Assembly: GCA_002269645.1 (NCBI GenBank)
Contig: NIVC01001811.1
Coordinates: 248,001-312,000, forward strand
Origin: Macrostomum lignano
Taxonomy: Eukaryota
DNA: 64,000 nucleotides
Direction: 5' to 3'
In this document: piece by piece, positions 1,266-43,812 of the stretch
Position numbering within the stretch: position 1 is the stretch's first letter
Layout: every line of letters begins with the position of its first letter
Translations under genes and position numbers: made by a program
The notes under the pieces: generated by a model
What the model was told of the DNA's origin: nothing
Databases searched by the model: none
What the model saw: the letters and a program-made list of their open reading frames with translations, nothing else

Positions 1266-1290
1266 TTCGTTTGCAGGCTGTTGTTATAAA

Positions 1291-2004
1291 CAAAACAACA
1301 GATAGCATAAACAATCACCTGCAAAGTCCGATCAAAACAACAGATAGCATAAACAATCACCTGCAAAGTCCGAACAAAACAACAGATAGCATAAACAATC
1401 ACCTGCAAAGTTCGATCAAAACAACAGATAGCATAAACAATCACCTGCAAAGTCCGAACAAAACAACAGATAGCATAAACAATCACCTGCAAAGTTCGAT
1501 CAAAACAACAGATAGCATAAACAATCACCTGCAAAGTTCGATCAAAACAACAGATAGCATAAACAATCACCTGCAAAGTTCGATCAAAACAACAGATAGC
1601 ATAAACAATCACCTGCAAAGTTCGATCAAAACAACAGATAACATAAACAATCACCTGCAAAGTCCGATCAAAACAACAGATAGCATAAACAATCACCTGC
1701 AAAGTCCGATCAAAACAACAGATAGCATAAACAATCACCTGCAAAGTTCGATCAAAACAACAGATAGCATAAACAATCACCTGCAAAGTTCGATCAAAAC
1801 AACAGATAGCATAAACAATCACCTGCAAAGTTCGATCAAAACAACAGATAACATAAACAATCACCTGCAAAGTCCGAACAAAACAACAGATAGCATAAAC
1901 AATCACCTGCAAAGTCCGATCAAAACAACAGATAGCATAAACAATCACCTGCAAAGTCCGATCAAAACAACAGATAGCATAAACAATCACCTGCAAAGTC
2001 CGAT
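1291..2004. repeat. 42-bp minisatellite, 17 copies, spanning the LTN1 exon1/intron1 junction
   Basis: Minus-strand unit GATCGGACTTTGCAG|GTGATTGTTTATGCTATCTGTTGTTTT with period 42 from 1291 to 2004. Confidence 0.97.
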
Positions 2005-2647
2005 CGAACGCGAACGCCACAGCCGAGCAGCGCTTGGCCTCACTAAACGCCCGCTTAAACGCCGTTCGAGCGGCCGAAGCCACCGACTCGGCCGGGTCAG
2101 CCTGAGCCATCAGCCAGTAGGGCAGAGTCTCCCTTAACAGGTTGGGCGCAAATCGTTTCTTAAGCCTGGCCGCCAGCTCGCCCGTGATTGGCTGGCACAG
2201 TTCGCGGACTCGCCTGTCGCTGTCCAGTGCCAGACGAGCGTACAGTCGAATCCAATAAGGCAGCGCAGCTTCCAAAGCTTCATCAGATCGATTAGTAAAC
2301 AAGCCGAATAGTTCGGCTAGCGCTTTCTGTTTAGTTACGGCGTCTTTCTTGGCTAATCTACGCAGAACGAAATGCAGCTCAGAGTCGAGTGCAGAATCCA
2401 GCTGCTGTGCGGCTTCTTCTGTTGCCGGAAGGAAGCCCGGATCAGCTGGCGCTGCTGCCCCCGAAGCTGCTGCTTCTAGAAGAGAAGAGCTAGCATCTGG
2501 CGCGGCCGTAGAAGCTACCGTAGTCAGCGTGCCATCGAAGCCAATCAGCATAGATTGCTGATGTCGCTGAAGAAACTCTGCAGCAGATTGACTACTGGAA
2601 GGCTTGGCGTTGCCTTTAGTTCTGGGCTGCTGATTTTTCTTGCCCAT
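1991..2647 (-). CDS. LTN1: Listerin (RQC E3 ubiquitin ligase) exon 1, 219 codons
   Basis: MGKKNQQPRTKGNAKPSSSQSAAEFL, GF, LRRLAKKDAVTKQKAL and WIRLYARLALDSDRRVRE match the conserved listerin N-terminus. CAG|GTGATT donor at 1991/1990. Confidence 0.9.
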
Positions 2648-17559: not shown

Positions 17560-18052
17560 AATGATGTTGAACTATTTAATTTCTGTGTCGCCGTTGCCCT
17601 TGTCTGTCCGGCAGCCCGTGGGCTAGCCTTGAACACTCGCGGGGACGTGTACCCCAAGGGTCGGCTTGCTTGGGCAGCTTGGACAAAGAACCGCGGCTGC
17701 CTGAGGCAGATATAAGACGCGCGGATCTTCTCCAGCCATTCCTGCCTAAATAGAGATGGCAGGTGGAGGTCGTCGCAGGCCTTAGCCCGGAGGCCTGACC
17801 TGTCTCACACCCTCCTGGCATGCTGCCCGAGCCTTCGCAAGCGGGCTGGACGCCTCGACGGATGAATCACCCGTTTGCATCGTTGCGTTGAGATGCTCGA
17901 AGCTAGATGCCTCTACAGATGAATCACCCGTGTACATCGCAGCGTTGAGCTGACCGAAGCTAGATGCCTCGACGGATGAATCACCCGTGGGCTTCGGAGC
18001 GTTTAGATGCTTGAAGCTAGACGCCTCGACGAATGAATTACCCGTGGGCATC
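17560..18052. repeat. Shared downstream block plus 57-bp array (4 copies), cassette 1
   Basis: Unit GACGCCTCGACGGATGAATCACCCGTGGGCATCGCAGCGTTGAGATGCTCGAAGCTA. The same block occurs at 25200-25735 and 32500-33060. Confidence 0.9.
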
Positions 18053-18075
18053 CGAGCGTTCGGCTGAGAAAGAAT

Positions 18076-19422
18076 TCAATTCCTCAGCCACGGGTTCAAG
18101 CGGAGTGCCTCTCCTCGCCTCTCCCCATAGTCATACAGGAGCTCTTCTCCTATTGCTATGTCTCGGAGCGCTTCGAACCCCAGCAGCGGTACTCCGCTCG
18201 ACTCGACCACTATTGGCCGGACGTTAGCACTTTTCCTGCTATGATTCAGGTAGCGTCCGACATACTCTTTTTCTTCTGTCGAATCTACGCAGTAAGCGCG
18301 GCCTATCCATGAGAAGAAGAAGAGAAAGCACGTCGGCTTACCTTGCTCAATTAGCTGCTGCTCGCGCTCGCGCCGCTCCTTTTGGCCTTTGATAAGGACT
18401 CCGCCGTACCAACAGACAAACACACCACGGGCCATATTCAGCCTCGCAAATGTGCCAAGCCCGCTGCCGTCGACGCCTGCGGCACGGACAATAACGTTGC
18501 CGGAGTTCATAAACAATTTTCTGCGGAGGTCGGCCTGTGCTAGCTGGGCTGCAGGGGTCCTAAACCCGCTCGGCAGGTCATTTGCAGTTTCAGCGTCGGC
18601 ATCGTCGGAGATGATCCTCTTGTGTGGGGTCACAAAGGGAATCGGCTGAATGCGGCCTTCCGGAGTCACCTCCGTCTCTTGGTGGATTTGAGCAGCGCAA
18701 CTCGAGTCCGGACTTCGCCGCTGAGTCCACGGAGACTCTGGCAGGGCTTCGGCCTCCGACAGCGTCTTCTGCGGGGCCTCGGCCTCCGGTAGCGTCTCCT
18801 GCGGAGCCTCGGCCTCCGGCAGCGTCTCCTGCGGGGCCTCAGCCTCCGGCAGCGTCTCCTGCAGGGCTTGGGCTGCCAGTTCTGCCTGCTGTGCCAGCCA
18901 TTTCCTAAAATTGACCTCTTGGCGAGAATGAGAAATTTCGGCCGCTGCAGGCAGCCTAGCAGATCCTGCAGCAGCGTCGCAGTCATAGGCAGCAGCAGCT
19001 GGTGTCCTGGGAACGTCGGTGGTCGATGGCGTTGCTTCCGTCGCAACGTCCGGCAGTCTTGCCACAAACACGGTCGGATTCAAGGATCGAAGATCCCGGA
19101 TTCCATAATCAATAAGCAGGCGCAGCTCGTTCAGCCGTTTGGCGGCGCGCTGTCGAGCTTCATTGACGGCGTCACGGCCGCTGGGACATTCTTGATCCCA
19201 ATGTTGTTGTTTGTAGTGCTGCCGCAGGTTTGACGAGGCAAAGGCACCACACAGCAAGCACAGCTTCACATCTGGCTTGGCATGCCAACGATGATAAAGC
19301 ACTACGGCATTGACTCGATCGACCTCATTTGGGTGGGTCAATCGGCCGTGTCGTAGGAGATTATCTGCCCGCAAGACAGAATAATCGCAGAGAGGGCAGT
19401 GCAAATACCGACTGGTAAACAT
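18076..19422 (-). CDS. Paired C2H2-like zinc finger + SETD8/KMT5A-like SET-domain protein, copy 1 (~448 aa)
   Basis: CPLC-x12-H-x4-H and CLLC-x10-H-x4-H. The SET region GLGTFA...WYGG...YCVDSTEE...GRYLNHSR...DIAIGEELLYDYG...NPWLRN follows SETD8 to its C-terminus. A putative 109-nt 5'UTR intron (19533-19425) favours ATG 19422. Confidence 0.88.
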   Translation of the reverse strand: MFTSRYLHCPLCDYSVLRADNLLRHGRLTHPNEVDRVNAVVLYHRWHAKPDVKLCLLCGAFASSNLRQHYKQQHWDQECPSGRDAVNEARQRAAKRLNELRLLIDYGIRDLRSLNPTVFVARLPDVATEATPSTTDVPRTPAAAAYDCDAAAGSARLPAAAEISHSRQEVNFRKWLAQQAELAAQALQETLPEAEAPQETLPEAEAPQETLPEAEAPQKTLSEAEALPESPWTQRRSPDSSCAAQIHQETEVTPEGRIQPIPFVTPHKRIISDDADAETANDLPSGFRTPAAQLAQADLRRKLFMNSGNVIVRAAGVDGSGLGTFARLNMARGVFVCWYGGVLIKGQKERREREQQLIEQGKPTCFLFFFSWIGRAYCVDSTEEKEYVGRYLNHSRKSANVRPIVVESSGVPLLGFEALRDIAIGEELLYDYGERRGEALRLNPWLRN

Positions 19423-19589
19423 TTCTTGCATACAGAAAAATATAAAACTTAAATAAGCAAAAGTCAAATGAAACAAGAAAATCAGCAAATACACAAGGTA
19501 GGAAAGAAACAAGAAACAAGAAATCAAACTTACGAACTTATGAACTTCAACTTATGTACTTATGAACTTAAAGACGAACAGATGAAAAA

Positions 19590-19964: not shown

Positions 19965-22520
19965 GGCTGCCAACCTGAAACGAAAGCACAACACACTTTA
20001 ATAAATGTTCTATGGGTTGCTGCAAGTTGCGCCATCGCCACGCCAATAGCGCCGAAGCCTTGGAAACTTGGTACTGTCAACAAATGCTAAATTGAGAAAA
20101 TTATTACACTTTGCGGGAACGGGTACCAGCCGACAGCCGCTTGAAATACATCGATTTGTGAGGTGTCATTAGATCGAGGACAGCCTGGGCTACATTGTGC
20201 GGTAGTTGGCCAGTCGGAATTTAACATTGGCAAAATTATAGACTACTTATGGCAGCAAGTAGCGGGTTTCTTAGGTGTAAAACGGCTGAAGATAGTTTAG
20301 CTTGCGTCGGACAGTCTCGCGACCGTCAAATTCCGACTCTACGTGTCGAAATACATTGGACTAGGTGTCTTTGTTTTTTTCAAAGTGTCTCTGCCAAAAT
20401 TTTGTACTTCGGGGTCTAAAGATTGACTGGCCACTTTCGGGAAGTCCGTCTGTCGCGGCGGAATCTACCACGAGCAGGTGGCACCCAATTCCGATGAATG
20501 CAATTCGATAGAGCATCACTAGAGCTTTCCAACGACTGCTGATACCAAGGGGAAATACCAAGGGGAAGGCTGGCTAATCGCACTCAAAGTGTCCAGCTGA
20601 TCTCCATGCGCAGAAATGGTGAGGGGGCAATTACACTTTGCGGCAACGGCTGCCAGTCAGAAACAGTAGCACATCTATTGATGAGACAAACATCTATCGA
20701 TAGATGCTCTATTATTTCTTAAATTCTCACATGCCCAGACTCACTTGACCCCCTGTACTCTGAGATAAATGTAGAACCGATCCCAGTCGAGATCCGGGGT
20801 TAATTGACCACTTTTTGGGGCTAGTCTGTTGCGCAATAATTAGCATTGAAAAACGCTATTGAACTACTGAGGAAATTATTACGCTTTAGTATACGCTTTA
20901 CGAAAACCAAAGACACCTAGTGCGATGTATTTTGACGCGTAAAGCCGCAATTTGACGGTCTCGAGACTGTCCAATGCAAGCTAAACTATCTTCAGCCACT
21001 TTACCCCTAAAATACGCACTACCATGTAGTATAAGTAGTATAGAATATTTTTAGCTGCTTGATTCCGACTGGCTGACCGGCCCAATGCGTAGTCCAGGCT
21101 GTCCTCAATCGAACGGCGCCACACACATCGCTAGATGTGCTTCTGTTGCCGACTGGTACCCGCTTGCGCAAAGCGTAAAAATACCCTCAATTTTTTTATT
21201 GTTGGGGAAGTTTCCAAAGCTACAGCTCCAACGCTATTGGCGCTTATGTGGCGCCGCTACCTTCAGACGATAGGGTATTTAATAGTGTGTCTATAGACGC
21301 TCACGGCACCCCGGTAGATGCCGCCGTTCTTTTTTGGCAGCGCGCCAAGTAAAGCGTAATAATTCCCTCAGTCGTTTTATAGCGTTTGCCTAGGCTAAGT
21401 ATTGCACAACAGACTGGTCCCATAGAGTGACCTATTGACCCCGGATTTCGACGGGGATCGCTTCTACATTTATCCCTGAGTACAGGGGGTCAAGTCCGGC
21501 CGAGATCCATCAAAATTAAGGGGCAGTCGGAAATCACTTTTGTGACCGATGGGGCGCCAAAAATGCCAGTCTAGACAGGCCTGTCTAGCCCAACTTTGAC
21601 TGGCTGCCATTTGAGATCGGTTGAGTCTGGGCAGGTGAGAATTTAAGAAGTGATAGAGCATCTATCGATGCGTCGGATGCTGTTTGTCTCATCAATAGAT
21701 GTGCTACCGTTTCCGGCTGGCAGCCGTTCCCGCAAAGTGTAATTGCCCCCTCACCGTTTCTGCGCATGGAGGTACGCTGGAGGTACGCTGCAGTACACTG
21801 CGCATGGAGTGCGGTTAGCCAGCCTTCCCCTTGGTATTTCCGGACGTTCTTGGTGTCGTTGGAAAGCTCTAGTGATGCTCTATCGAATTGCATTCATCGG
21901 AATTGGGTGCCACCTGCTCGTGGTAGATTCCGCCGCGACAGACGGACTTTCCGAAAGTGGCCAGTCAATCCCTTAGACCCCGAAGTACAAAATTTTGGCA
22001 GACACACTTTGAAAAAAGCAAAGACACCTAGTCCGATGTATTTCGACACGTAGAGTCGGAATTTGACGGTCGCGAGACTGTCCGACGCAAGCTAAACTAT
22101 CTTCAGCCGTTTTACACCCAAGAAACCCGCTACTTGCTACCATAAGTAGTATATAAGTTTTTTACTGTTCTATTCTGACTGGCCGACCAGCCCACTATGT
22201 AGTCCAGGCTGTGCTCGCTCTAACGACGCCACACACGTCGCTAGATGTGCTTCCGCTTTCGACTGGCAGCCGTTGCCACAAAGTGTAATAATTCCCTCAA
22301 TATTTTTAGGGCTAGAGTTGCAAGTTTCCAAGGCTCCAGCTTCGGCGCTATTGGCGCCAAAGTGGCGCCGCTACCGTCAGACGATTGGGTATTTATTAAA
22401 GTGTGTATAGACGCTCGCGTCGCGCCGGTAGATGCCGCCGTTCTTTTTTGGCAACGCGCCAAGTAAAGCGTAATAATTCCCTCAGTCGTTTTATAGCGTT
22501 TGCTAAGGCTATGTATACAT
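19965..22520. repeat. ~1.1-kb cassette repeat: one reversed copy then ~1.5 forward copies (inverted junction near 20880)
   Basis: AGACACCTAGT(C/G)CGATGTATTT recurs at ~20910 and ~22022 and is reversed at ~20340-20370. Confidence 0.9.
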
Positions 22521-23399
22521 AAGTAGGCCACACAAGCAGGTGGCAGCTAATTCTGATGAATGCTATTGGATAGAACACTTATAGGGCTTTCCAATGACAC
22601 CACGAACGTTGAGATATACCCAGGTGAAGGCTGGCAAATTTCACTCAAATTGTCCATGTTATCTAGTGTCGCAATACGGCTAAGAAAATTATTACACAAT
22701 GCTTGGCCGACCTCAAAGAATAGCTCTAACCCAAACCTAGGGAAACTTCTATCTTTTGATATTACTTAAGTGGGATTTGGGTACATAATTCTCAAAGTAG
22801 GCGTTGTCGAATAGGAGAGATGTTGTAGTGCGCTTGTGTGCTGAGAAAATCATGGTCTCATGGACCGTATATTTGAGCTACTATATAGTATCACTGCCGA
22901 CGTGCGGCTACAATGTTACGCAATAGTTGAGGGACAAGTCAGTGCACGTTGGTCGAGAGGGCTATAGTTATTCATCACAGAAAAGTAAAGGCATAGACTG
23001 GGCGTACACTACATCTCTCCCCCAACCAAAAAAGTACAAAGTGTGTAATTCGATTAACAGAGATAAACGGAACGAGATTTCGGAACAGTTGTGTTAAATT
23101 TACGTTGGGTGAAATTTACGTATGCATGTACATGTGATACGAGCGTAATTAGTAGTCTGCAGTCTGCAGTTAGTAGGATGATGCTCTGTTTTGCTGGCCT
23201 TGTGGTTTGCTGACGTGCTGTCGTGGGGCCAGTGGACCTCCCAAATGCCGTCGCACCCTTCGGTCACCTGGCGGAGCGCCGATCGAAATTAGCGGCGTGC
23301 GCCGTCTGGTCACCAGCTTCCAGCCGGGCTCGGACGGCTGCTGAACGTCTGCTGTGTCTGCCGGCTGCTGTTGGCCGGCTGAGAGCGTCTCGCTCGCGC

Positions 23400-23607
23400 C
23401 AACGCCTCCGATGTCCTGGCGCTGGCGTCTCCTTGACACAGCCGCCTGCGCCTGCCGCGCCATGCCAGGCCACCAGAATTTCCTTCTCAGCCGGTCGATG
23501 GCCTTCCTCCTGCCGAATTGACCCTGGTGGGCCCAACTGACGGTCTGCTGCTGAAGCGCTGCGGGTACAACGATTCTGTTGCCCCTGAGCAGCACGCCGT
23601 CACGCAC
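23400..23607 (-). pseudogene. Gypsy integrase zinc-binding region remnant; catalytic core absent
   Basis: DGVLLRGNRIVVP...WAHQGQFG...LRRKFWWPGM is the typical pre-integrase HHCC region. Confidence 0.75.
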
Positions 23608-24983
23608 CTGAAGCTCCCCTTGAGCGAGTGGAAGCTGCCGGCCTGGGCTGTAGCGCCGGAGCGCCAGTTGCCAGTTGCCAACGCCTGCATGACGAAGGTC
23701 AGAGCCGGGTCCCCCGCTGTGGCATCGCGGACGCTCTTGATGGTCGGGCCTTCCGGTGCGGACTTGACGGAGTTGAGCTGCTGCAGCGGTACGTTGTCCT
23801 GGACTGGTTGCGCGTTTAGAGAATCGCTCAGACTTGTTGCCTTTCTGGCCGGTGCCCGGGCCTGCGTCCCCAGACTCAGCAGCTGCAGGGATGTCGAGGT
23901 TGCACGGCCGAGCACGCTGGTGCCGGTCCCTGGGACGATGATGAAGCTGGCGCGCCGGACCATTGAGCCAACCGAAACCTGCAGGCTGCAGGCTCCCACA
24001 GTGCGCAGAGGTTTAGCTGAACGAAATGAGAAAATCTTTGTCGTCGGCTGCAGGCCTGGGGGTTCCGGGAGCTCTCGCCAGGCTGCCTCGGTGAGGATGT
24101 TACAGTCGGCTCCGCTGTCCACCAGCACCTGCACTGGAGTCGCTTCCACCAGCACCGTGGCAAGAGCCGCTGTTGCGTTCGTGTCGGAGGCCATCACGGT
24201 CAGGCAGAAGACGTCGTCCTCTTCGCCCGAACTGTCGCTGCCGACCCGCAGAGCTCGCACGTCCTCCGGCCGGGACAGGCAGGCCTTGGCGAGGTGATTC
24301 GGCTTGCCGCATCGGTTGCAGGTCTTGCCTACCGCTGCGCTGCAGCTGCGGTGGCCGAAGTTGCCGCAGCAGATGCACTTTGGCTGCGTGCGATCGGCTG
24401 CCTGCGTGGCTGATCTCTGCGGCTGCCCTGGCGGGCTGGACTCGCGCTTCCGCAGCCGCTGCACGGTCACTGCGCTGGTCTCCATGAGGCTGGCCTGCGC
24501 CTCCGCTGCCTCCATGGCCCTTGCCACCCGGACCGCCTGGCCCAGGTCCACGTTGTCCATGGCCAGCAGCTTCCTGCGGAGCTGCTCGGAGCTGCAGCCG
24601 GCGATCAGCTGGTCACGGATCAGCGAGTCCCGGAGGCCTTCGAATTTGCAACAGTCCGCGGTGTTGTTGAGCCGCCGCAGCCAGTCGTCCAGGGACTCTC
24701 CGGTGAAGGGCAGGTTGAGCTGGCTGGTGAAGTGCTCATTGAGAGCCTTGATGAGCTTGTCGACGTCATCATCGGTGACGGCGAGTCCGGCTGCAACGGC
24801 CTGCAGGTCCTCGCCCGCTGTGTATAGAAGGAGTTGGCGAAGTCGCTTCTTGTCAGAGATATCAGCAGCTGCGGCGAACAGCTGGAACTGAGCCAGTCAC
24901 TTGCTCCACTTCGTATGTGCCGCATGGGGCTCCTCGCGCAAGTTCAATGTGGGCGGTATGGGTAGGCTTGCTTGCGACGCCAT
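23487..24983 (-). pseudogene. Gypsy gag-protease (one premature TGA); RT and RNase H deleted
   Basis: Single frame from ATG 24983 with zinc knuckles (CNRCGKPNHLAKAC) and aspartic protease VLVDSGAD. No RT motif. Confidence 0.85.
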
Positions 24984-25199
24984 TGTAGTGCGCTTGTGTG
25001 CTGAGAAAATCATGGTCTCATGGACCGTATATTTGAGCTACTATATAGTATCACTGCCGACGTGCGGCTACAATGTTACGCAATAGTTGAGGGACAAGTC
25101 AGTGCACGTTGGTCGAGAGGGCTATAGTTATTCATCACAGAAGAGTAAAGGCATAGACTGGGCGTACACTACAGATGTAATGAAATTAAGATGCACTGA

Positions 25200-25735
25200 T
25201 GTCGAACTATTTAATTTCTGTGTCGCCGTTGCCCTTGTCTGTCCGGCAGCCCGTGGGCTAGCCTTGAACACTCGCGGGGACGTGTACCCCAAGGGTCGGC
25301 TTGCTTGGGCAGCTTGGACGAAGAACCGCGGCTGCCTGAGGCAGATATAAGACGCGCGGATCTTCTCCAGCCATTCCTGTCTAAATAGAGATGGCAGGTG
25401 GAGGTCGTCGCAGGCCTTAGCCCGGAGGCCTGACCTGTCTCACATCCTCCTGGCATGCTGCCCGAGCCTTCGCGAGCGGGCTGGACGCCTCGACGGATGA
25501 ATCACCGTGGGCATCGCAGCGTTGAGCTGACCGACGCTAGACGCCTCGACGGATGAATCACCTGTGGGCATCGCAGCATTGAGCAGCTTGACGCTAGACG
25601 CCTCGACGGATGAATCACCCGTGGGCATCGTAGCGTTGAGATGTTCGAAGCTAGACGCCTCGACAGATGAATCACCTGAGGGCATCGCAGCGTTGAACTG
25701 CTCGACGATAGACGCCTCGACGGACATCGCGTCCG
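25200..25735. repeat. Shared downstream block plus 57-bp array (5 copies), cassette 2
   Basis: Near-identical to 17560-18052. Confidence 0.9.
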
Positions 25736-25749
25736 TGTGCGTCGCAGCG

Positions 25750-26839
25750 TTAATACTTACGGAACTGGGATTTCCATCGGTTGAGAATCGGCTTTAACCG
25801 AATCTGCAGCTCCGGATCATTCAGAGGCGGGAATCCAGGAGCGTTCGACAATTCCTGGAGCAACCTCTTCTTGGAGGGTTTCACAGGATTTTCGCTTGTC
25901 ATCCCATACGATCGGGCAAGCTTGTCAACTAGGCCATGCATGCGCTCACCAAGGTCGCAGTCTAGAAGCTGCATTGAAGCAGCCTTCCGCTGGGCCCTTA
26001 TCGAGAGCGGCAACTTCGGAACTCTTGCCAAGTCGACTTGGCGACCAGAGTGTGAGTTCCCTACTTGACTCACGGACGGCCCAATGTCGCTGTCGCTGTC
26101 ATCTGGAGCATCTTCTGAGCGGCTCGATTGCTTTTCCGGTGACTCGTCATCGCTGTCATCATCGCGATGAGGTCCAGGAGACGATTTCCTTATCGTCGAA
26201 ATGTCGTCCAGGAACGAGACAAAATCGTCGATGCACCCGCGCACGCACCACTTGGTCCAGCTTGCATGTTGAGTCGGAACCGACTTTTCACGGTTGAGAG
26301 TCGGCATTAACAAAATTTGCAGCTCCGGATCATTCAGAGGCGGGAATCCAGGAGCGTTCGACAATTCCTGGAGCAACCTCTCCTTGGAGGGTTTCACAGG
26401 ATTTTCGCTTGTCATCCCAAACGATCGGGCAAGCTTGTCAACTAGGCCATGCATGCGCTCACAAGGTCGCAGTCTAGAAGCTGCATTGAAGCAGCCTTCC
26501 GCTGGGCCCTTATCGAGAGCGGCAACTTCGGAACTCTTGCCAAGTCGACTTGGAGACCAGAGCGCGAGTTCCTTTCATGACTCGCAGACGGCCCGATGTC
26601 GCTGTCGCTGTCATCTGAATCATCTTCCGAGGCGCTCGAGTGCTTTTCCGGTGACTCGTCATCGCTGTCATCATCGCGATGAGGTCCAGGAGACGATTTT
26701 CTTATCGTCGATGCACCGCGCACGCACCACTTGGTCCAGCTTTCATGTTGGGATGATCACTTAGACGAAGGTCTTCGACGATAACAAGAGACTCATAATC
26801 AATGTCATCTTCATCTTCCTCAATGCGATCGCACTCCAT
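25750..26839 (-). pseudogene. Degenerate acidic orphan gene of cassette 2 with internal ~540-bp tandem duplication
   Basis: ATG 26839 (MECDRIEEDEDDIDY...). Blocks 25785-26220 and 26320-26750 are duplicated. TATA-like and GGAGCC array lie upstream at 26920-27175. Confidence 0.5.
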
Positions 26840-27174: not shown

Positions 27175-29105
27175 GCAATTCGATGTATTTCGACGCGTAG
27201 AGTAGGAACTTGACGGTCTCGAGACTGTCCGACGCAAGCTAAACAATCTACAACCGTTTTGCCTCTAAAAAACCTGCTATCATATTCTGTAAGTAGTATA
27301 GAATGTTTTAGCTGTTTGATTTCGACTGGCCGACCGGCCCACTATGTAGTCCAGGCTGTCATCCTCCGAACGAAGCCTCACACGTCGCTAGTTGTGCTTC
27401 CGCTGTCGACTGGCAGCCGTTGCCACAAAGTGTAATAATTCCCTCAATATTTTTAGGGCTTGAGGGGCACGTTTTCAAGCCTACAGCTTCGGCGCTATTG
27501 ACGCCAAAGTGGCGCCGCTTACGTCAGACGATAGGATATTTATTAAAGTGTCTATAGACGCTCGCGTCGCGCCGGTAGATGCCACCGTTCTTTTTTGGCA
27601 ACGCGCCAAGTAAAGCGTAATAATTCCCTCAGTTGTTTAATAGCGTTTTTCAATGCTAATTATTGCGCAACAGACTGGCCCCATACAGTGGCCTATTGAC
27701 CCCGGATCTGGACAAAGATCGCTTCTACATTTTTTCCAGAGTACAGGGAGTAAAGTCCGGCCGAGATCCATCAAAATTAAGGGGCAGTCGGAAATCACTT
27801 TTGTGACCGATGGGGCGCCAAAAATGCCAGTCTAGACAGGCCTGTTTAGCTCAACTTTGACTGGCTGCCAGTTGAGAACGGTTGAGTCTGGGCAAGTGAG
27901 AATTTAAGAAGTAATAGAGCATCCATCGATGCGTCGGATGCTGTTTGTCTAATCAATAGATGTGCTACCGTTTCCGACTGGCAGCCGTTGCCGCAAAGTG
28001 TAATTGCCCCCTCACCGTTTCAGCGCCTGGAGATACGCTGGACACTTTGAGTGCGATTAGCCAGCCTTCTGGGTATTTCCAGATGTTCTTAGTGTCGTTG
28101 GAAGGCCCTAGTGATGCTCTATTGCATTCATCGGAATTGGGTGCCACCTGCTCGTGGTAGATTCCGCCGCGACAGACGGACTTCCCGAAAGTGGCCAGTC
28201 GATCCCATAGACCTCGAAGTACGAGCTACAAAATTTTGGCAGAAGCACTTTGAAAAAAGCAAAGAAACCTAGTCCGATGTATTTCGACACGTAGAGTCGG
28301 AATGTGACGGTCGCGAGACTGTCCGACGCAAGCTAAACTATCTTCAGCCGTTTTACACCCAAGAAACCCGCTACTTGCTACTATAAGTAGTATAGAAGTT
28401 TTTAGCTGTTCTATTCTTTCTGGCCGACCAGCCCACTATGTAGCCCAGGCTGTCCTCGCTCTAACGACGCCTCACACGTCGCTAGATGTGCTTTCGCTCT
28501 CGACTGGCAGCCGTTGCCACAAAGTGTAATAATTCCCTCAATATTTTTAGGGCTTGAGGGGCAAGTTTCCAAGGCTCCAGCTTCGGCGCTATTGGCGCGA
28601 AAGTGGCGCCGCTACCGTCAGACGATAGGGTATTCATTAATGATCAATAGCTCGCGTCGCGCCGGTAGATGCCAACGTTCTCTTTTGGCAACGCGCCAAA
28701 TAAAGCGTAATAATTCCCTCAGTTGTTTAATAGCGTTTTTCAATGCTAAATATTGTGCAACAGACTGGCCCCATAGAGTGGCCTATTGACCCCGTATCTC
28801 GACGAGGTTCGCTTCTACATTTATCCCAGAGTACAGGGGGTCAAGTCCGGCCGAGATCCATCAAAATTAAGGGGCAGTCGGAAATCACTTTTGTGACCGG
28901 TGGGGCGCCAAAATTGCCAGTGTAGACAGGCCTGTTTAGCTCAACTTTGACTGGCTGCCAGTTGAGAACGGTTGAATCTGGGCAGGTGAGAATTTAAGTA
29001 GTAATAGAGCATCTATTGATGCGTCGGATGCTGCTTTTCGCATCAATAGATGTGCTACCGTTTCCGACTGGCAGCCGTTCCCGCAAAGTGTAATTACCCC
29101 CTCAA
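27175..29105 (+). repeat. ~1.1-kb cassette repeat, ~1.8 tandem copies
   Basis: GATGTATTTCGAC at ~27182 and ~28276 (period ~1095). Confidence 0.9.
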
Positions 29106-29330
29106 CGTTGCGCAGCTTGACGCTAGACGCCTCGACGAATAAATCATCCGTGGGCATCGCAGCGTTGAGTTGCTCGAAGCTAGACGCCTCGACGGATTAA
29201 TCTTCCGTGGGCATCGCAGCGTTGCGCAGCTTGACGCTAGACGCCTCGACGGATGAATTACCCGTGGGCATCGCAGCGTTGAGATTCACGGAGCTAGACG
29301 CCTTGACGGATGAATCACCCGTGGGTCTAG
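29105..29330. repeat. 57-bp array, cassette 3
   Basis: Same unit as at 17849 and 32780. Confidence 0.9.
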
Positions 29331-29352: not shown

Positions 29353-30114
29353 CTAGTCTTTTAGCCATGGGTACTGTCTTAGTACCTTTGGGCGGCTCTC
29401 GCCGTAATCAAAGAGGAGTTCCTCGCCTGCCTTTATGTCGCGAGCGGCCTGGAAGGCTAGCTGGGGCTTGTCGCCTACATCAACCACAGTCGGCTTTAAG
29501 TTTTCTTTCGGCTGACTATGATTGATGTAGCGTCCGACATACTCAGTCGTGTCGGTAGCATCGACGCAGAAGGCTCGGCCTCGCCAGGAGAAAAAGAAAA
29601 GGAATGAGCAAGTCTTCCCTTGATCTAGAAGTTGCTGCTCCCGTTCGAGGCGGGCTTTTTGCCCTTGGATCATGTGTCCGCCGTAGCAGCAGACAATGAC
29701 GCCTTTTGCAAGGTTGATCCGGGCAAAAGCGCCCAGGCCCTCAGCATCAACGCTACCGGTCCGGACCACGACATTACCGGACTGTATCAACGTCCGGCGC
29801 CACAGGTCGGCCTGTACGATCTGCCTCACTGACGCGATACCGGACGGCAGGGACCGGTCTTCACTTCCCCGGCTAGCTCGACCGTAGGGCGTCACATGAG
29901 GGACCGGTATGCGCGCCCCTTCCGGCGTGATAATAACGTCATTAACAACTGCCTCGCAATGAGCGGTCTCCATTGCAGGCGAAGGCACTGTCGGAGAGGC
30001 GGCAGCGTGGCCAGAAGACTGCGCCGGTGCTCTTCCGGTGACGTTAACCGGCGTTCTGGTCACAGGGGCATCTTCTGCTTCGGCTTCTCGCTGGAGCCAA
30101 ATGCTAAAGGGAAT
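29353..30114 (-). CDS. Zinc finger-SET protein copy 2, exon 2 (SET domain)
   Basis: TTGTCAG acceptor then IPFSIWLQRE... SET motifs CVDATD, GRYINHS, DIKAGEELLFDYG, YPWLKD. Confidence 0.88.
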   Translation of the reverse strand: MPFSIWLQREAEAEDAPVTRTPVNVTGRAPAQSSGHAAASPTVPSPAMETAHCEAVVNDVIITPEGARIPVPHVTPYGRASRGSEDRSLPSGIASVRQIVQADLWRRTLIQSGNVVVRTGSVDAEGLGAFARINLAKGVIVCCYGGHMIQGQKARLEREQQLLDQGKTCSFLFFFSWRGRAFCVDATDTTEYVGRYINHSQPKENLKPTVVDVGDKPQLAFQAARDIKAGEELLFDYGESRPKVLRQYPWLKD

Positions 30115-30251
30115 CTGACAAATAAGATAAAAGACATACTCATAATACTATATCGCGTTTGTACTACTCGAACATGCATTGAAAGCTGCAGGTGACCCAA
30201 CTCTAGCCTGTTAACTAATTTCACTGAATAATTAACTAACTAACTAACTAC

Positions 30252-30291
<40 letters not shown>

Positions 30292-30384
30292 TGCACTAAA
30301 TAAATACTGAATAACGAATTAATTAACTTACTTTCATTAAATGTAACCGAAGCGTAACCATAACCAAATTTTGATTTGATTTAC

Positions 30385-30924
30385 CTCATCGCGCTTCTCC
30401 GGTACAGCGGCAGCAGCTGAGGCGGCGCCAGCGATTGAAGCGGCGGCAGCTGAGGAGGCGTCAGCGATTGAAGCGGCGGCAGCTGAAGCGGCGTCAGGGA
30501 TTGAAGCGGCGGCAGCTGAGGCGACGTCAGGGGTTGAAGCGGCGGCAGATTCCGGCATCCTTTCTAGCAACACGGCTGGGTTGGTGTTGATTTCATGCCG
30601 AATGCCGTAAAAGGCCAGCAGCCGCAGGCGCTCCAACCTCGCCTCTGCCCTAGCCCTTGCCTCAGTGACGGCTGCCCGGCCGACTTCAAACTCCATGCCG
30701 TTGTGCTTCTGCCGCATATGCTGGCGCATGTTGGTGGCAGCGAATGTGTCGCATAGTTGGCACAGCTTGAGATCATTTTTGCGGTGCCAACGTCTGTACA
30801 CTATGTACGCTTCGACACTATCGAACTCAGCTGCGTGACAGTTTCGACCATGTGGAAGGAGTTTGTCGGCGCGATTCGTTTCGAAGTCGCAAATCGGGCA
30901 ATTTAGACGATCCATAATATTCAT
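30385..30924 (-). CDS. Zinc finger-SET protein copy 2, exon 1 (two C2H2-like fingers)
   Basis: CPIC-x12-H-x4-H and CQLC-x10-H-x4-H align with copy 1. GAG|GTAAAT phase-0 donor, 270-nt intron, spliced product 433 aa. Confidence 0.82.
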
Positions 30925-31254
30925 ATTAATTTCAATTGCTAGTAAAATATTCTAGTATTTCTCGTACAAGTCAAATGAAATATGAAAGAGAGGCAAATGA
31001 AACTTTGAGTATTACAAAAATTGAAAACTGAAAAAGCATAAGCCAGTATAAGCCAGCTCACGTCCTTATATACCATACTTTTCGGAGGCTCCCAAATCCT
31101 CTAGACTCTCAAGCCTCTTTGGAGAGTCTTAAGGTCTCCAAAACCTCCCAGGCCCCGAAACCTCTCAGGCTCCGAATCCTCCCAGGCTCCGAAACATCCC
31201 AGGCTCCAAAATCCTCAACAAATCTGCAAATCCTCCCAATCCTCATCCAAAACA

Positions 31255-32350
31255 AATACACCTAGTCCGATGCATTTCGACGCGTAGAGTCGGAATGTGA
31301 CGGTCTGGAGACTGTCCGACGCAAGCTAAACTATCTTCAGCCGTTTTACACCTAAGAAACCCGCTACTTGCTACAGAAAGTAGTATAGAAGTTTTTAGCT
31401 GTTCTATTCTGACTGGCCGACCAGCCCACTATGTAGTCCAGGCTGTCATCGTTCTAACGACGCCACACACGTCGCTAGATGTGCTTCGGCTGTCGACTGG
31501 CAGCCGTTGCCACAAAGTGTAATAATTCCCTCAATTTTGTTAGGGTTAGAGGGGCATGTTTCCAAGGCTCCAGCTTCGGCGCTATTGGCGCCAAAGTGGC
31601 GCCGCTATCGCCAGACGATAGGGTATTTATTAAAGTGTCTATAGACGATCACGGCATGCCGGTAGATGCCACCGTTCCTTGTTGGCAGCGCACCAAGTAT
31701 AGCGTAATAATTCCCTCAGTCGTTTTATAGCGTTTGCCTAGGCTAAGTATTGCACAACAGACTGGTCCCATAGAGTGACCTATTGACCCCGGATTTCGGC
31801 GTGGATCGCTTCTACATTTATCCAAAAGTACAGAGGATCAAGTCCGGCCGAGATCCATCAAAATTAAGGGGCAGTCGGAAATCACTTTTGTGACCGATGG
31901 GGCGCCAAAAATGCCACTCTAGACAGGCCTGTCTAGCCCAACTTTGACTGGCTGCCAGTTGAGATCGGTTGAGTCTGGGCTGGTGAGTATTCTGGAAGTG
32001 ATAGAGCATCTATCGATGCGTCGGATGCCGTTTGTCTCATCAATAGATGTGCTACCGTTTTCGTCTGGCAGCGCTTCCCACAAAGTGTAATTTTCCCCTC
32101 ACCGTTACTGTGCCTGTAGGTTTCCTGAGACTTTCAATGCACTTTGCCAGGCTTCTGGTGGGTATTTCCGGACGTTCTTGGTGTCGTTGGAAAGCCCTAG
32201 TGATGCTCTATCGAACTGCATTCATCGGAATTAGGTGCCACCTGCTCGTGGTAGATTCCGCCGCGACAGACGGACTTCCCGAAAGTGGCCAGTCAATCCC
32301 TTAGACCCCAAAGTACAAAATTTTGCCAGAGACACTTTGAAAAGAGACAC
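31255..32350 (+). repeat. ~1.1-kb cassette repeat, one full copy
   Basis: ACACCTAGTC at ~31258 and ~32347. Confidence 0.9.
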
Positions 32351-32499
32351 CTAGTCTGAAATTTTGCATTTTCCACTGGCTTTTTTCTATGGAAACTCCT
32401 ATCTTTTGATTGTACTGAAGTGGGATTGGAGGCACATATTACTTAGAGTAGGCGTTGTAGAATAGGAGGGATGAAATGAAATGAAGGTGTACTGATGTC

Positions 32500-33060
32500 T
32501 AACTATTTAATTTCTGTGTCGCCGTTGCCCTTGTCTGTCCGGCAGCCCGTGGGCTAGCCTTGAACACTCGCGGGGACGTGTACCCCAAGGGTCGGCTTGC
32601 TTGGGCAGCTTGGACGAAGAACCGCGGCTGCCTGAGGCAGATATAAAACGCGCGGATCTTCTCCAGCCATTCCTGCCTAAATAGAGATGGCAGGTGGAAG
32701 GCGTCGCTGGTCTTAGCCCGGAGGCCTGACCTGTCTCACACCCTCCTGGCATGCTGCCCGAGCCTTCGCGAGCGGGCTGGACGCCTCGACGGATGAATCA
32801 CCCGTGGGCATCGCAGCGTTGAGATGCTTGAAGCTAGACGCCTCGACGGATGAATCACCTGTGGGCATCGCAGCGTTGAGATGTTCGAAGCTAGACGCCT
32901 CGACGGATGAATCATCCGTGGGCATCGCAGCGTTGAGATGTTCGAAGCTAGACGCCTCGACGGATGAATCACCCGTGGGCATCGCAGCGTTGAGATGCTC
33001 GAAGCTAGACGCCTCGACGGATGAATCACCCGTGGGCATCGCAGTGTTGAGCTGCCCGAC
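32500..33060. repeat. Shared downstream block plus 57-bp array (5 copies), cassette 4
   Basis: Unit starts at 32780, 32837, 32894, 32951 and 33008. Confidence 0.9.
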
Positions 33061-33094: not shown

Positions 33095-34039
33095 TCAGAA
33101 ATGGCCTCGCTGGCTCGGGTGCTCCAGCTGGCTTGTCTGGCCACGGTTTATGTAGACGCGCAGATACTCTAAGTACTCAAGAAACAGTTTGCGGCAGCGA
33201 GCTACAAACGGTTTCCCGCGGAGCTGCCTAGCATCAGCAGTAGGATGCTGCTTTGAACAGTGCTTTTTTAAGCTAGTTTCGGAGACGAAAATGCAAAAAG
33301 GGCACAAAAGAAGCCCTTGTCTTTCCTTTTCGCAATTCGTCTTGGCTTTAGCCTCATAAAGAGACAGGCGCTTAATCGCCTCTAGCCGCACTGGGTGTGT
33401 CTCGTTATGTTTGGAATGGCAATGCTGCTTAATTACGTCACTCCGAACTTTGGAGGAGCAGAGGGGGCACGTGCGCATTGCACCATGGCCTCCACGCTGA
33501 CCTGCTCCGCGTGAGGACGTGGCAGCACTTTCCTGATTTTCATCAAGGAACTCCTGAATTACTGCATCAATATATGTGTGCACGCCATTTGGGTCGAACT
33601 CACTGCCCTCTGAAGCATCAAATGGCCTCACACAAGGTGGGTCCGATGAATTGGTAATTGTGGCACCTTCGCTATACAGGAGCTCCAGAAATCCACCTGG
33701 CATGGGTGCCTCAGACATGGGAACCTCATCAGCCGACAGATCGACTGTGGGTACCTCCATGTAGGGCACATCAGCGAGGGCGGCAGAGTCAGGAGCCTCA
33801 GGGATGCTTATGATCATGGGCTCGTCAGGCACATAAGACATGGGCAGCCCAGGCATGAGTATCTCATCAGCCGACAGATCGACTGTGGGTGAATTCATGT
33901 AGGGTACATCAGGCGCCTCAATGATGTTAAAGAACATGGGCTCCTCAGCGCTTGGGCCGATCGTAGCCACCTCCGCGGGAACGCCAATGTCCTCATCAAT
34001 CAAAAAAGCAATTAACTGATCAAAGGCTTGATCGTCCAT
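33095..34039 (-). CDS. Acidic N-terminus + paired C2H2-like finger protein, 314 aa
   Basis: Intact ORF with CPLC-x11-H-x4-H and CPFC-x10-H-x4-H, and a duplicated DVPYMxxPTVDLSADE motif. It occupies the gene slot of cassette 4. Confidence 0.72.
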   Translation of the reverse strand: MDDQAFDQLIAFLIDEDIGVPAEVATIGPSAEEPMFFNIIEAPDVPYMNSPTVDLSADEILMPGLPMSYVPDEPMIISIPEAPDSAALADVPYMEVPTVDLSADEVPMSEAPMPGGFLELLYSEGATITNSSDPPCVRPFDASEGSEFDPNGVHTYIDAVIQEFLDENQESAATSSRGAGQRGGHGAMRTCPLCSSKVRSDVIKQHCHSKHNETHPVRLEAIKRLSLYEAKAKTNCEKERQGLLLCPFCIFVSETSLKKHCSKQHPTADARQLRGKPFVARCRKLFLEYLEYLRVYINRGQTSQLEHPSQRGHF

Positions 34040-39427: not shown

Positions 39428-42400
39428 TCAGGTGATCCACTGCGGGTGGGCCACCCTCAAGAACCCTATCACCATGTTCTCCTCGCGCAGATCCTTCAGT
39501 TCACGCAGACCAGTGTGCTGCCGAAGCCCGTCCCAACGCGCGCACGACCACCAGTGGTCTTTATCTTCTATGTCACCGCAGTCCTCGCAAACGCCTTCTG
39601 CTTCCAGACCAATCTTCTGCCTCCAGTACTTAGTGAGTCTGCAGTGACCAGACCTGAGCTGGGCTAAGATGGAAGCAACTTTCCTGCCACATTCCGCGCG
39701 TTCAATCCCACCACCGTACACCGAGCGCAGACGGGGGTCATTTATGCAGGGCCTCCACCGGTGCTTCAGGTGTCTGCGTAACGCCTCAAACTCAACGGCC
39801 GTCTGCCCTTGGGGCAAGAGCGCTGCCTGCTTTGCCAGCTCGTCGGCCCTCTCATTTCCAGCGATGCTGCAGTGGCCTGGGATCCACTGGAGGGTGATGC
39901 TGCACCATACACTCGTCCTCCTGAGCCTGTCAATCAAGTTAAATTGGCTCCTGTTTCCAGTGACCCTCTCGGTACCGGTGGCCAAGACGGCGGACTTGCT
40001 GTCAGTCAGGATGAGAGCGCTACTTGGCCTCAGCTCTTCCACAAGATCTAGCGCCAGGTGCAAAGCCGTTCTTTCCGCGATAAGGGAGCTACAGAATTCG
40101 CCCGCTGCAGCTAACTTGCAGTACTCACGTTCATCGCACCAGGCGACACAGGCCGCTCCTCCGTTCCTTCCGTTTCCGTCTACAGAGCCGTCCGTGAAGA
40201 TTTTCAACTCGACCTGACCTCTTTCCTGGATGGTTCGAGCCGCGTCTTCTGCGATGTCTTCATCACCCTTCTTGGCATTGCCGGATAGGTCGGGAAACAA
40301 CCCGACCCCGTCGAGTCTGAGCCTTCTCCAAGGGGGGTGCCTTTTCCTCATGAATTCCTCCCTGGGAGCCTCGCTGATGGATCTACTTTCATACCTCGCT
40401 TGCTCGCGCCATCCCTTATTTGCCTTAAGTCTCCTGGGGAGGACGATGTCGCACATATCACGCTTGAGGCTGGGTCGGGGCTCGCGCTCAGCTTTCTCCC
40501 ATTCGAGAACGCAGCGCAGGATCGCTTTTTCGGAAATGGGCGGGATTCCTGTTTCCAGGTGAACCGCTTCCACCGGCGTTGATTTCACGAGCCCAGCTGT
40601 CAGACGGAGGGCTTCACGCTGCGCCCGCTCGATCTTTTGAACGTTGGTCTTCGAAATCCAGGGTAACCAAGCTGCCGCGGCGTACCAAACGCAGCTCTCA
40701 ACGATCGCAGAGTAAACTTTCTTGAGACTCTCCGCCTGCCAGCCCCATTCCGTATTGGCCACCGCCTTGAGAACCCTGCTTCTTCGGCGCATTTTATCGA
40801 CCACGGCGTCCGTGTGTTCCTGGAAATTGAGGCCACGGTCGATGCGCACTCCCAGGTACTTAAGCGAGACTTTCCCCGCGATCTCCTTTCCGCTAATCCA
40901 GAGCTTCGGGTGGCGATTTTTGTCTTTCGTGGACTTGCTGAAGAGGCAGGATTCGCACTTCCCTGGGTTCAGCTCAATTTTAAGGCCATCCGCCCAGCCG
41001 CCGATCTTATCCAGCGCACGCTGCAGGCGTTTAGTGATCTCCTCGGTGTCATCTCCGCTGCACCAGACTGCCAGGTCATCCGCGAAGCCGCCGTACTGCA
41101 CTCCCTCCTCTTTCACACCGGTCCAACCATTTACATACAGGAGGAACAGAACAGGGGAGCTCACCGCGCCCTGCGGGAGACCTTCCTGGAGGCGTCTGTA
41201 TTTGCTGTTGCCGTCCCCGGCACGGACTCTGGCTTGTCTTCCTTCCAAGAAGCTAGCAAACCACCTTGTGATCCTGGCTGGGACGCCCTCCTCCATCATT
41301 CTCTCAAGGAGTTTCACTCTCCAAACTTTTTCGAACGCTTTCGAACAGTCCAATGTCACGGCCAGAGTTTTTTTTGGTTTTTTGCTCTCCCAGCCGTCTT
41401 GAATGTGCTGCACAAGCCTGAGCACCTGTTCCTCGGTGCTTCTGCCCCTCTGGAAGCCGGCTTGCCAGGGCTGAATGATGTTATTCTCCTCCAGCCAGAA
41501 GTACAACCTGTTCACGACCATCCTTTCCATGAGCTTGGCGCAGACCGGAGTTAGGCTGACCGGTCTGTAGGATTCCTTCGCCGCTGGGTCTTTGCCGGGT
41601 TTAAGCAACGGAACGATTTCCGCTTTCTTCCAGGACCCAGGGCATAGCTCATCTGCCCAGCTTCTGTTGAAAACATCCAACCGTCTCTGACGGCCTACTA
41701 CGGAGAGGTTTTTAAGAAGCCGAACTTCAACTCCGTCAACTCCCCCCTTCTTCGTTGGGTCCATCAGCTTGAGCGCATCATCCATCTCATCCATAACGAA
41801 TGGTGTGTCAAACTCCTGGTGCGCGTTATAGGCTCTTAGTCTTCTAGCCACCTCCACCCGCTTGACCCGGTCCGCCTTCCCGATCTTGACCTTACTGTTA
41901 TCAGCGTACATGCTAACGAACACAGCCGCCTTTTCGACATCCGATCTGGCTTCGCGCCCTTTGTCAGCTAAAATTTGGTTAGGCGGGGCAGTATCTCTAG
42001 CTGAGTACAGTGATTTGATGGTACTCCAGGTCTTCTTCCCGTCGTCGTTTTCTTTAAGGCTTTCCACATGTTCGGCCCAGAAGGACCGCTTCTTTTCCCT
42101 GATTTTAGCCTCCAGGTTCCTGTTTACCTCCAACCACTTTTCTCTGCTGACAGTCGTGCTTCTAGAGCAGTTGTCCCGCTCATTCTGCAGAGCGCTCAGT
42201 TCATCGTCCCAAAAAGGTTTGTACTTTCCTCCCACTTTCTTCTTAGGGATGCTCAACTCCGCCGCCTTGACCATGGCTGCACTCAGCCCTCTGACCTCGG
42301 CTGCTAACTCGGTCCTTGGCACTTTCTCGAACAGATCATCCGCATTACGTTGGAACTCCGAGAAGTCCGCTTTCTTCCACGCCCAGTTTAGCTTGGTCTT

Positions 42401-43812
42401 CTTTTGCCGGATTTCTCTCCTGGTAGCCACGGTGACCAGGATGGGGAGATGGTCTGAGCCGAGACCTTCGAGGGTTTTCCACTCGCAGCGCTCCGCCAGC
42501 TCTCCCGCCGCCAACGAAATGTCCGGGACGCTGGTCCGTCCTGTACGCCAATCCACGCGCGTCGCGGCTCCATCGTTTAGGATCCTGTAGTCAAATTCTT
42601 CGCACCAGGATTCCAGCTCTAAAGCCTCCCTTCTGCTGTCTCTTCCTTGGTCGTCGCAGCTTCCCCAGCTTCTGCTGTGTAGGTTTAAGTCGCCGAGAAT
42701 CAGCTCTCTTCTGTCTGGTTTAAGCCAGCTCCAGACACTATCATCCTCCCTGTCGTCACTGCCTTCGACAGTGCGCACAGGGGGGCGGTAAACATTAGTG
42801 ATGACACACCTTTCCTTCCTGTTAACGTCCACGATCACGCGGCAGCCCTCCGTGGTAGTGCCTTTCCAGCCTGTCCAGCGCTTGAAAGGAAGATTGTGCT
42901 TGATCAGGGTGATCAGGCCTCCCCCTTTAGACTTATCGCTTCTGCGGATCTCCACCCTGTCCTTCCGGGCGGTGGTGTAGCCGGCGAAGCGGGGGTTGGC
43001 GACTCGCTGTCAAGTTTAGATTCCTGAATGACAGCCACGTCAATGTCATGCGCTTTCAGAAACCGCTCAAGCTCCACTTTCTTATTTCTAATGCCATCGG
43101 CGTTCCATTGCAGAATCCTCAGGTTTTCCCTCCGGGCGCTCGACCAGCCCTCGCCGGCCGGGTTTCTGGTCTCTTCCTTATCCACGGCGATATTATCGGT
43201 TCTGGCTCTTTCCAACTTGTCTGAGCACATCTGGCAGGTCCAAAGGCCTTTTTTAATTTCACCGTCGATTTGAGCTCTGCTGGCTCCAGTACACTTGTTA
43301 TGGAACAGTTCGTCACATCTAGTGCACCGCGCAATAACCTTAGTGACCTTGAGCTTGCCTCCACAGCCAGGCTTAGCACATCTGCTACCCTTCTCGATCC
43401 TCTCGATGCAGCGTTTTCTTCTCTCCTCAGCCGCCGCGGCATCTTCCGCCAACCAATCCTCCTGCTGAGAGCATCCGCCGCACTTCCAATCCTTCTTTCC
43501 TTCTCTCGCTTTGCTCTGGCCCGCTCTAGTCAAGCCTGTGCAGCTGCCGTGGACTTCGTTACCGCAGCCGACGCAGCGGACCGGGTTTTGGCCCCTAGTG
43601 ATGTTTTTTCCACATCTGGCGCACGGGCCAGGGTTGGGTTCCACATCGCCGTCCCTGTCAAGCCGCTCAGTTCTCCAGCCTCTCCTGTCTTCCTGCGCGT
43701 TGGTAGCGGGTTTCGCAGCATACCCTTCCAATCTCTTCCACCCTCTCTTATCATGGTGAACATGGTGATCCGCGTTACTCCGGGTGTTCGTATCCAAATT
43801 AGGAACTCTCAT
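39428..43812 (-). CDS. LINE polyprotein: 2A peptide, two PHD fingers, APE, RT, RNase H, C-terminal CCHC (one -1 frameshift at 42991-42995)
   Basis: DVEPNPGP; CARC...HGSC...WKC; LRILQWNADG; GDLNLH; LGSDHLP; GLPQGAVSSP; FADD; IFTDGS...WIPGH...NERAD. One extra base in a G5 run restores one 1462-codon frame. Confidence 0.9.

Follow-up and report, generated by a model that had tools for sequence, protein, structure and literature searches.

A zinc-finger-SET family carried by a Kyakuja-type KDZ transposon in Macrostomum lignano includes a gene with a probable one-off Phe at the SETD8 Phe/Tyr switch

Among described enzymes, those closest to the two genes analysed here are the SETD8 proteins, also called PR-Set7 or KMT5A, whose Tyr334 occupies the position known as the Phe/Tyr switch. 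General accounts of this switch are given in PMC3178901 and PMC3874154, and its mutation in SETD8 is reported in PMC8897848 to turn the monomethylase into a dimethylase, as the initial annotation of this locus had stated for Y334F. Judging from the PDB titles, SET8-Y334F has been crystallized both with unmethylated K20 and with K20me1 (the mutant entries are 3F9W and 3F9Y; for 3F9W see also PMC3529403). The dimethylated mark, H4K20me2, recruits Orc1 through the BAH domain of the latter according to PMC3874154, in agreement with the same annotation. A Phe at the switch also occurs naturally: the SET8 of Cryptosporidium (CpSET8, Tyr445/Phe537) is reported to have H4K20me3 activity, and the same source cites Toxoplasma SET8 as producing all three H4K20 states (10.1101/2022.03.06.483160).

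Chromatin-modifying genes are also found within DNA transposons. Kyakuja elements are described as having 5′-CA...TG-3′ ends and a 7-bp target duplication, and KDZ elements in fungi as carrying TET/JBP genes (PMC12730594). SET genes inside DNA transposons are known from oomycetes (PMC12730594, PMC4067079), where HarbingerS, MuDR and proto-Helentron elements contain a histone lysine methyltransferase gene. Among the titles and abstract openings covered by our search there was no paper on SETD8-like cargo in KDZ elements of animals or in Macrostomum; such cases may be listed in Repbase or in the supplementary files to PMC12730594 and PMC4067079.

The window, a stretch of 64,000 nucleotides from contig C1811 analysed here as a whole, contains two SET genes on its minus strand. 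Macrostomum lignano, from which it comes, is a flatworm in use as a laboratory model; NCBI assigns to this species proteins that are identical to two loci of the genome. Copy 1 (18076..19431) is an intronless zinc-finger-SET gene of 451 aa with Tyr at the switch, as read from its ORF, Pfam matches and alignment. Copy 2 (29353-30924), delimited from ORFs and splice prediction, has two predicted exons: the first (30385..30924) is an ORF encoding C2H2-like zinc fingers whose matches fall under the Pfam cut-off, and the second (29353..30114) is an open frame matching Pfam SET, which comprises a linker and a SETD8-like SET domain and ends in PWLKD-stop. The predicted intron between them (30115..30384; 270 bp, GT-AG, phase 0) contains a TAAC repeat; the AG acceptor of exon 2 is in phase, and the junction matches that of an annotated relative (P0005). 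Joined, the two exons give an open product of 433 aa, a predicted zinc-finger-SET protein. Two sequencing runs that are RNA by guess only (X5 and X6) yielded short contigs (depth 2.7-4.3) that match each SET gene at its 5′ end; none extends to the SET domain or crosses the copy 2 intron. No spliced contig across this intron was seen among the contigs of the sequencing runs, those of run X1 cover it as DNA would, and runs X7 and X17 gave no contigs matching copy 1. These contigs speak neither for nor against transcription of the two genes.

The initial annotation had drawn attention to a difference between the two genes at the switch, which minus-strand translation bears out: copy 2 reads GEELLFDYGESR at 29395-29427 and copy 1 reads GEELLYDYGERR, with LLFDYG (within GEELLFDYG) in the former and LLYDYG (within GEELLYDYG) in the latter. 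The Phe codon of copy 2, TTT at 29410..29412 on the minus strand, is placed at SETD8 Y334 by translation, alignment and structure match. It lies a single base away from TAT, the Tyr codon of copy 1 (18133-18135) and of the closest relative of copy 2. The Pfam SET domain is complete in both ORFs (E 4.7e-16 and 1.6e-14), and human SETD8 chains are the top solved relatives of both genes (phmmer E 3e-22 and 1e-27). In the alignment, the copy 2 string 'geellfdyg' is identical in every letter to PDB 3F9W, at a position where wild-type SETD8 chains have Y. The structural comparison with SETD8 proposed in the initial annotation leads to the same entry: in the AlphaFold2 model of the copy 2 SET domain (pLDDT 87.7, 100-row alignment) the predicted fold has 3F9W as its top Foldseek match (TM 0.77, rmsd 2.2). 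Alignment and model both point to a Y334F structure, and the assignment of this position to the Phe/Tyr switch stands. The signature of a monomethylase, Tyr at the switch, is present in copy 1 and is replaced by Phe in copy 2. The Phe is found in all three assembled copies of the locus, and contigs from runs X1 and X9 (two other study codes, maybe of the same strain, whose contigs drop rare variants) span the codon with no alternative letter. Its presence in the three assembled copies and in two further runs rules out sequencing error as its source.

SETD8 is the best match of both copies in sequence and in predicted fold, and its catalytic motifs (the Y245 equivalent, NHS, ELxxDY and PW) are kept; copy 2 in addition has at the switch the same residue as the engineered enzyme in 3F9W and 3F9Y. 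Unlike SETD8, copies 1 and 2 carry N-terminal zinc fingers, belong to a multi-copy, repeat-associated family, show only ~34% identity to it and are changed at 11-14 of 43 conserved positions, a set defined by agreement among 85% or more of the SETD8-like proteins. The value for copy 2 is 14/43, the six family types compared range from 11 to 16, and the canonical SETD8 of the host has a single change. KGRG, the Glu that precedes the Y245 equivalent, and the strand YMYYF are among the sites changed in the family. This host SETD8 is of the Tyr type and occurs as three assembled copies adjoining a peptidase M3 gene; in a quick tree the family forms its own long branch apart from it (SH-aLRT 91). 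As judged from their sequences, copies 1 and 2 have a SETD8-like SET domain, yet they are not SETD8/KMT5A orthologues. The host also encodes SUV4-20 (E 4.5e-62 to SUV420H2), with a second paralogue recognized by motif only.

The departure of six family types at 11-16 of the 43 positions, against one in host SETD8, raises the question of whether copy 2, or even the whole family, still methylates H4K20: the proteins could be inactive or could act on another substrate, be it a different histone or a non-histone protein, and the switch would then be uninformative on H4K20. The deep branches and pairs of the family have a dN/dS of 0.09-0.28 where dS is finite, and the family has therefore been under purifying selection. 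The two active-site tyrosines other than the switch are invariant, as is NHS, and the fold predicted by the model is SETD8-like in Foldseek. Loss of H4K20 methylation, which overlaps with the explanation that we prefer below, is on these grounds improbable.

How unusual a Phe is at this position can be seen from homologues outside the flatworm. A profile search returned 20,026 proteins at E 0.001, the best 150 of which were examined together with two from a word-indexed search (the word-indexed protein searches gave two and five relatives only); two proteins from the M. lignano genome and one made of fragments were set aside, leaving 149, with one domain per protein. Within this set the switch residue is Tyr in 129, Phe in 15 and another residue in five, and the Y245 equivalent is Tyr in 149/149. 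Four of the 15 Phe homologues are named, from a tunicate, an amphipod, a choanoflagellate and a fish. The quick tree comprises 160 rows and 143 columns, the switch column included, and has many forks open; seven rows from the genome that were broken or nearly duplicated others were excluded. It requires about 15 changes of the switch label, at least five of them forced by strong branches. Taken by itself, the difference in this residue is nothing unusual, SET8 enzymes with a natural Phe being known and common. Copy 2 resembles CpSET8 in its natural Phe (10.1101/2022.03.06.483160); the apicomplexan SET8 proteins, including that of Toxoplasma, are the organisms' own enzymes, whereas copy 2 is a member of a transposon-associated family beside an intact host SETD8 and SUV4-20. 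Several fish and sea-cucumber gene models (P0003, P0004, P0007, P0020 and P0021) contain several SETD8-like domains in tandem, the switch residue being Cys or Phe in some of them; such models were probably produced by fusing mobile cassettes that occur in repeated copies.

Within the flatworm genome, a six-frame search gave 51 matches, and all 79 candidates were scored. The family to which the window genes belong comprises the 19 best matches (59-100% identity), with Phe at the switch in three and Tyr in 16, one of the latter being frameshifted. Over 10-30 kb the flanks of all three Phe matches agree with those of the window at 99.5-99.98%, so that these matches represent one locus assembled three times; the same flanks rule out three independent Phe insertions. 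Counted by sequence type, Phe is found in one of seven, all other family types having Tyr, and in a DNA search with the whole copy 2 gene the only matches above 83% are these three copies. The Phe is a singleton among the genomic copies, an outcome that the initial annotation had itself named as telling against its proposal of paired enzymes. A Tyr and Phe gene pair at a second locus was not found in the assembly of the single genome searched.

The history of the Phe was followed over 144 SET codons. The closest relative of copy 2, on C1149/C3426, is 76% identical (dS 0.26) and is of the Tyr type. Between copies 1 and 2 the identity is 60% and dS is about 2.4; they are not sisters (codon tree support 93-100), copy 1 grouping with the gene on C12. 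This dS and the non-sister placement rule out that the two genes arose by a recent tandem duplication and then divided the labour. Copy 2 and C1149 show 60 differences, of which the 44 single-base ones were polarized with four distant outgroups. The copy 2 branch so obtained carries 11 amino-acid-changing and five silent changes, counts that depend on this polarization and form a small sample of 16, and it includes both the Tyr-to-Phe change and a change from NHSR to NHSQ. Neutrality fits this branch (P=0.35) and the deep-branch dN/dS of about 0.18 is rejected (P=0.007); dN/dS is generally raised on the short branches of the family (0.34-0.48). Copy 2 has also lost the Arg that follows YGE, a residue with 91% conservation outside the family and retained in each of the five further family types compared. 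No exon 1 was found for the Tyr sister (C1149/C3426) in the 20 kb examined, and since copy 2 is intact and its sister is without exon 1, relaxed selection on copy 2 is not obvious from gene structure.

These observations lead us to the explanation that we consider probable, namely that both window genes belong to a transposon-carried family of SETD8-derived zinc-finger-SET genes, and that the Phe of copy 2 is likely a single-locus TAT-to-TTT change and not a selected partner of copy 1. As it occurs at one locus in an otherwise Tyr-type transposon family, the Phe is likely a one-off and not half of a two-enzyme pathway, and it probably arose by drift on a copy freed from selection after insertion. 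The surplus of amino-acid changes on the copy 2 branch is, however, also compatible with positive selection. Copy 2 might be active and its Phe favoured for its own sake, in a gene retained by the host or by an element that gained multi-methylation, in parallel to a Phe clade found elsewhere in the genome. The intact frame and catalytic motifs of copy 2, its number of amino-acid changes, higher than the family background would give, the existence of that clade on C349, C3282, C2918 and others, and the natural Phe-type Cryptosporidium enzyme with its reported H4K20me3 activity (10.1101/2022.03.06.483160) all fit such a history. The dN/dS of the branch is nevertheless not above 1 (11/326 vs 5/106) and the single locus shows no sign of spread, so that we hold a favoured Phe in copy 2 to be unlikely.

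The Phe clade itself is separate from the window's family and repeat-associated (C349, C3282 and C2918 types; SH-aLRT 99), with ELLFDYGP in every copy read; several copies have stops or frameshifts (L020, L028, L029, L030 and L063-L067; also L068 and L070). Because Phe is kept across its divergent members, Phe-type cargo can be maintained, and as a candidate for a Phe-type enzyme under selection this clade is to be preferred to copy 2. On C2918 (L109, L064; also on C2635 and C20) ORFs for a JmjC protein, an RPA-like OB-fold, a zinc-finger protein and an ISXO2-like transposase cluster close to a broken SET gene of the Phe type; together they may represent a cargo set of the writer-plus-eraser kind.

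The evidence for the mobility of the family comes from nine Tyr-type zinc-finger-SET copies, about 99% identical in DNA and located on different contigs (C910, C1944, C3083, C2504, C191, C1892, C3192, C4217 and C5220; L041-L049), some of which may be one insertion assembled repeatedly. A KDZ match is found on 9/9 of these contigs, the SET gene lying 3-5 kb downstream of a KDZ transposase (PF18758, E 1e-18) and a second zinc-finger ORF. The left end of the element starts with CA and is found in four different flanks; the right end, which finishes with TG, lies about 35 kb further along if nested repeats are counted and was read in two different flanks. On C1944 the 7 bases that precede the left end are the same as the 7 that follow the right end on C1892, and copies of the target repeat without an insertion contain this 7-mer once. 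This 7-bp target duplication is one case read across two contigs, as both ends never occur on one contig; a duplication within a single contig was not found for C910, where the right end lies past the contig edge. The outermost 15 bases of the two ends differ, and the element has an imperfect 77-bp subterminal inverted repeat (86-92%) as well as subterminal tandem repeats. In the stretches examined, all nine element copies carry one single Tyr-type SET gene. We conclude that in the Macrostomum genome a KDZ transposon of the Kyakuja type, about 35 kb long and mobile until recently, carries the zinc-finger-SET family as cargo. A KDZ gene likewise precedes the zinc-finger-SET genes of a more remote family, also with Tyr (C103 type), and the relative of copy 2 has a KDZ match 15-16 kb upstream, with a similar right end 6.7 kb downstream on C3426.

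The flatworm element shares with fungal Kyakuja the KDZ transposase, the CA...TG ends, the 7-bp duplication and a chromatin-modifier cargo, as far as these features are given in PMC12730594; they are found at the related loci and not in the window. It differs in its animal host and in carrying zinc-finger-SET genes instead of TET/JBP. Fungal Kyakuja is described there without terminal inverted repeats, whereas the flatworm element has its imperfect subterminal repeat. With the oomycete elements it has in common a histone lysine methyltransferase gene inside a DNA transposon; the proto-Helentron SET protein is likened to Clr4/SUV39 (PMC12730594, PMC4067079), whereas the flatworm genes are SETD8-derived, fused to zinc fingers and found in an animal KDZ element. 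Other family members have different neighbours: the SET gene on C12 (L051, L185) lies directly upstream of a Helitron Rep/helicase gene and that on C859 (L040) directly upstream of Pif1 helicase pieces, which suggests an exchange of cargo between transposon types.

The window genes themselves lie in a cluster of four minus-strand ORFs (~15.7 to 34.2 kb), each with a 57-bp tandem array at its end. Repeat analysis places these arrays directly 3′ of copy 1 (17845..18060) and of copy 2 (29106..29325) and behind the two other minus-strand ORFs (25480-25751 and 32776-33059). A shared 537-bp block follows three of the four arrays, and 17-bp arrays lie upstream of three ORFs. This cassette-like arrangement of ORFs and arrays was seen at the window locus only. 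Self-comparison further reveals a module of 850-1100 bp, with two copies at 27181..29109, others at 20903-22516 and 31249-32359, and pieces in inverted orientation near 16829 and 20000. Relatives of the module that have diverged from it are found 2-3 kb beyond KDZ genes on five contigs and also adjoin the SET copies on C12, C3379 and C4681. The remaining two ORFs of the cluster are a zinc-finger-like one (33095..34039, minus strand), with homologues dispersed in the genome, and one without a Pfam match (25750..26454, minus strand), associated with an internal duplication (25778-26199 vs 26291-26711). Between the SET genes lies a nested LTR-retrotransposon-like insert (22823..25173) with gag/protease only and 191-bp direct repeats that are 99.5% identical; it is a recent insertion outside the SET family. 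A viral origin was considered and rejected, viral genes being absent among the 13 window ORFs scanned.

Queries from the related loci (KDZ, Helitron, Pif1, ISXO2-like and EnSpm-like, tblastn included) detected no transposase in the window, a KDZ match was found nowhere on contig C1811, and Kyakuja-type element ends had no match in the window. The transposon origin of the cluster is therefore inferred from cargo homology and shared modules. On our preferred explanation, the cluster would be a patchwork without a transposase, assembled from cargo modules of transposons, in which two diverged family members came to lie side by side. Against this, a single array with shared downstream repeats holds both genes, and it could be one element.

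This last point bears on the enzyme pair put forward in the initial annotation, which could deposit H4K20me1 and H4K20me2 and bypass SUV4-20, me2 being the mark read by ORC1 and 53BP1. Developed further, this proposal would make the array one element or a domesticated locus whose Tyr and Phe enzymes write H4K20me1 and then H4K20me2, recruiting ORC1 or 53BP1. The residue is a true switch, both frames are intact, the two genes lie in one array with common repeat modules, and recruitment of Orc1 by H4K20me2 is on record (PMC3874154). The pairing is nevertheless confined to one locus and to genes that are not sisters, the recently mobile element carries a single Tyr-type gene in 9/9 copies in the stretches examined, and the host already encodes SETD8 and SUV4-20. 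Moreover, H4K20 as the substrate is an assumption from sequence similarity, with copy 2 departing at 14 of the 43 conserved positions. Even for an active copy 2, predicted by analogy to add two methyl groups, copy 1 would not be needed, since SET8-Y334F was crystallized with unmethylated as well as monomethylated K20 (PDB titles). We regard such a division of labour as very unlikely.

The transposon context, and not the residue difference, is what would matter here. By descent, the family enzymes would be expected to methylate a histone lysine, H4K20 being the likeliest, and their zinc fingers would probably aim them at the chromatin of the element itself. A more far-reaching version, to which we give only a small chance, is that flatworm transposons carry a self-aimed kit for writing H4K20, made of Tyr-type monomethylases in Kyakuja and independently evolved Phe-type dimethylases (the Phe clade and copy 2), of which the window would hold one each. 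If true, this kit would license replication of the element's chromatin or steer its repair and silencing. An animal KDZ element with a SETD8 derivative that has zinc fingers and is under purifying selection offers a testable case of a transposon writing its own histone mark. The natural Tyr/Phe variants of one scaffold (copy 2 and its 76% identical relative; the Phe clade) likewise allow tests of the switch beyond engineered mutants.

Other elements were noted in the course of the analysis. On C1674 (140000-151500; L179-L180) a homologue of the window ORF at 33095-34039 is followed by a long ORF and then by the shared module. The long ORF has what we take to be tyrosine-recombinase-like motifs; Pfam gave no match to it at E 0.001, BLAST detected no similarity between it and P0002, and C1753 has a homologue of it close to a SET gene of the Phe clade. 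The ORF beyond the module presumably resembles an EnSpm-type transposase, with no Pfam match. A further ORF on C1674 (L180:8713-9207, minus strand) matches viral RNA-dependent RNA polymerase (Pfam RdRP_1, E 3e-12) and is likely an endogenous viral fragment. In the window, the first exon of the listerin (LTN1) E3 ligase gene (1160-2647, minus strand) runs into a tandem repeat with 84-bp spacing, and the neighbouring 5′ segment (989-1256) also has matches near the host SETD8 loci. A Tc1/mariner-like element with 160-bp inverted ends lies at 58514-59464, and a short minus-strand frame near 63734 contains a motif that we assume to be tyrosine-recombinase-like. A LINE-like element at 39428-43812 (PHD, endonuclease, RT and RNase H) is missing at the matching place on C2898 and is a polymorphic insertion.
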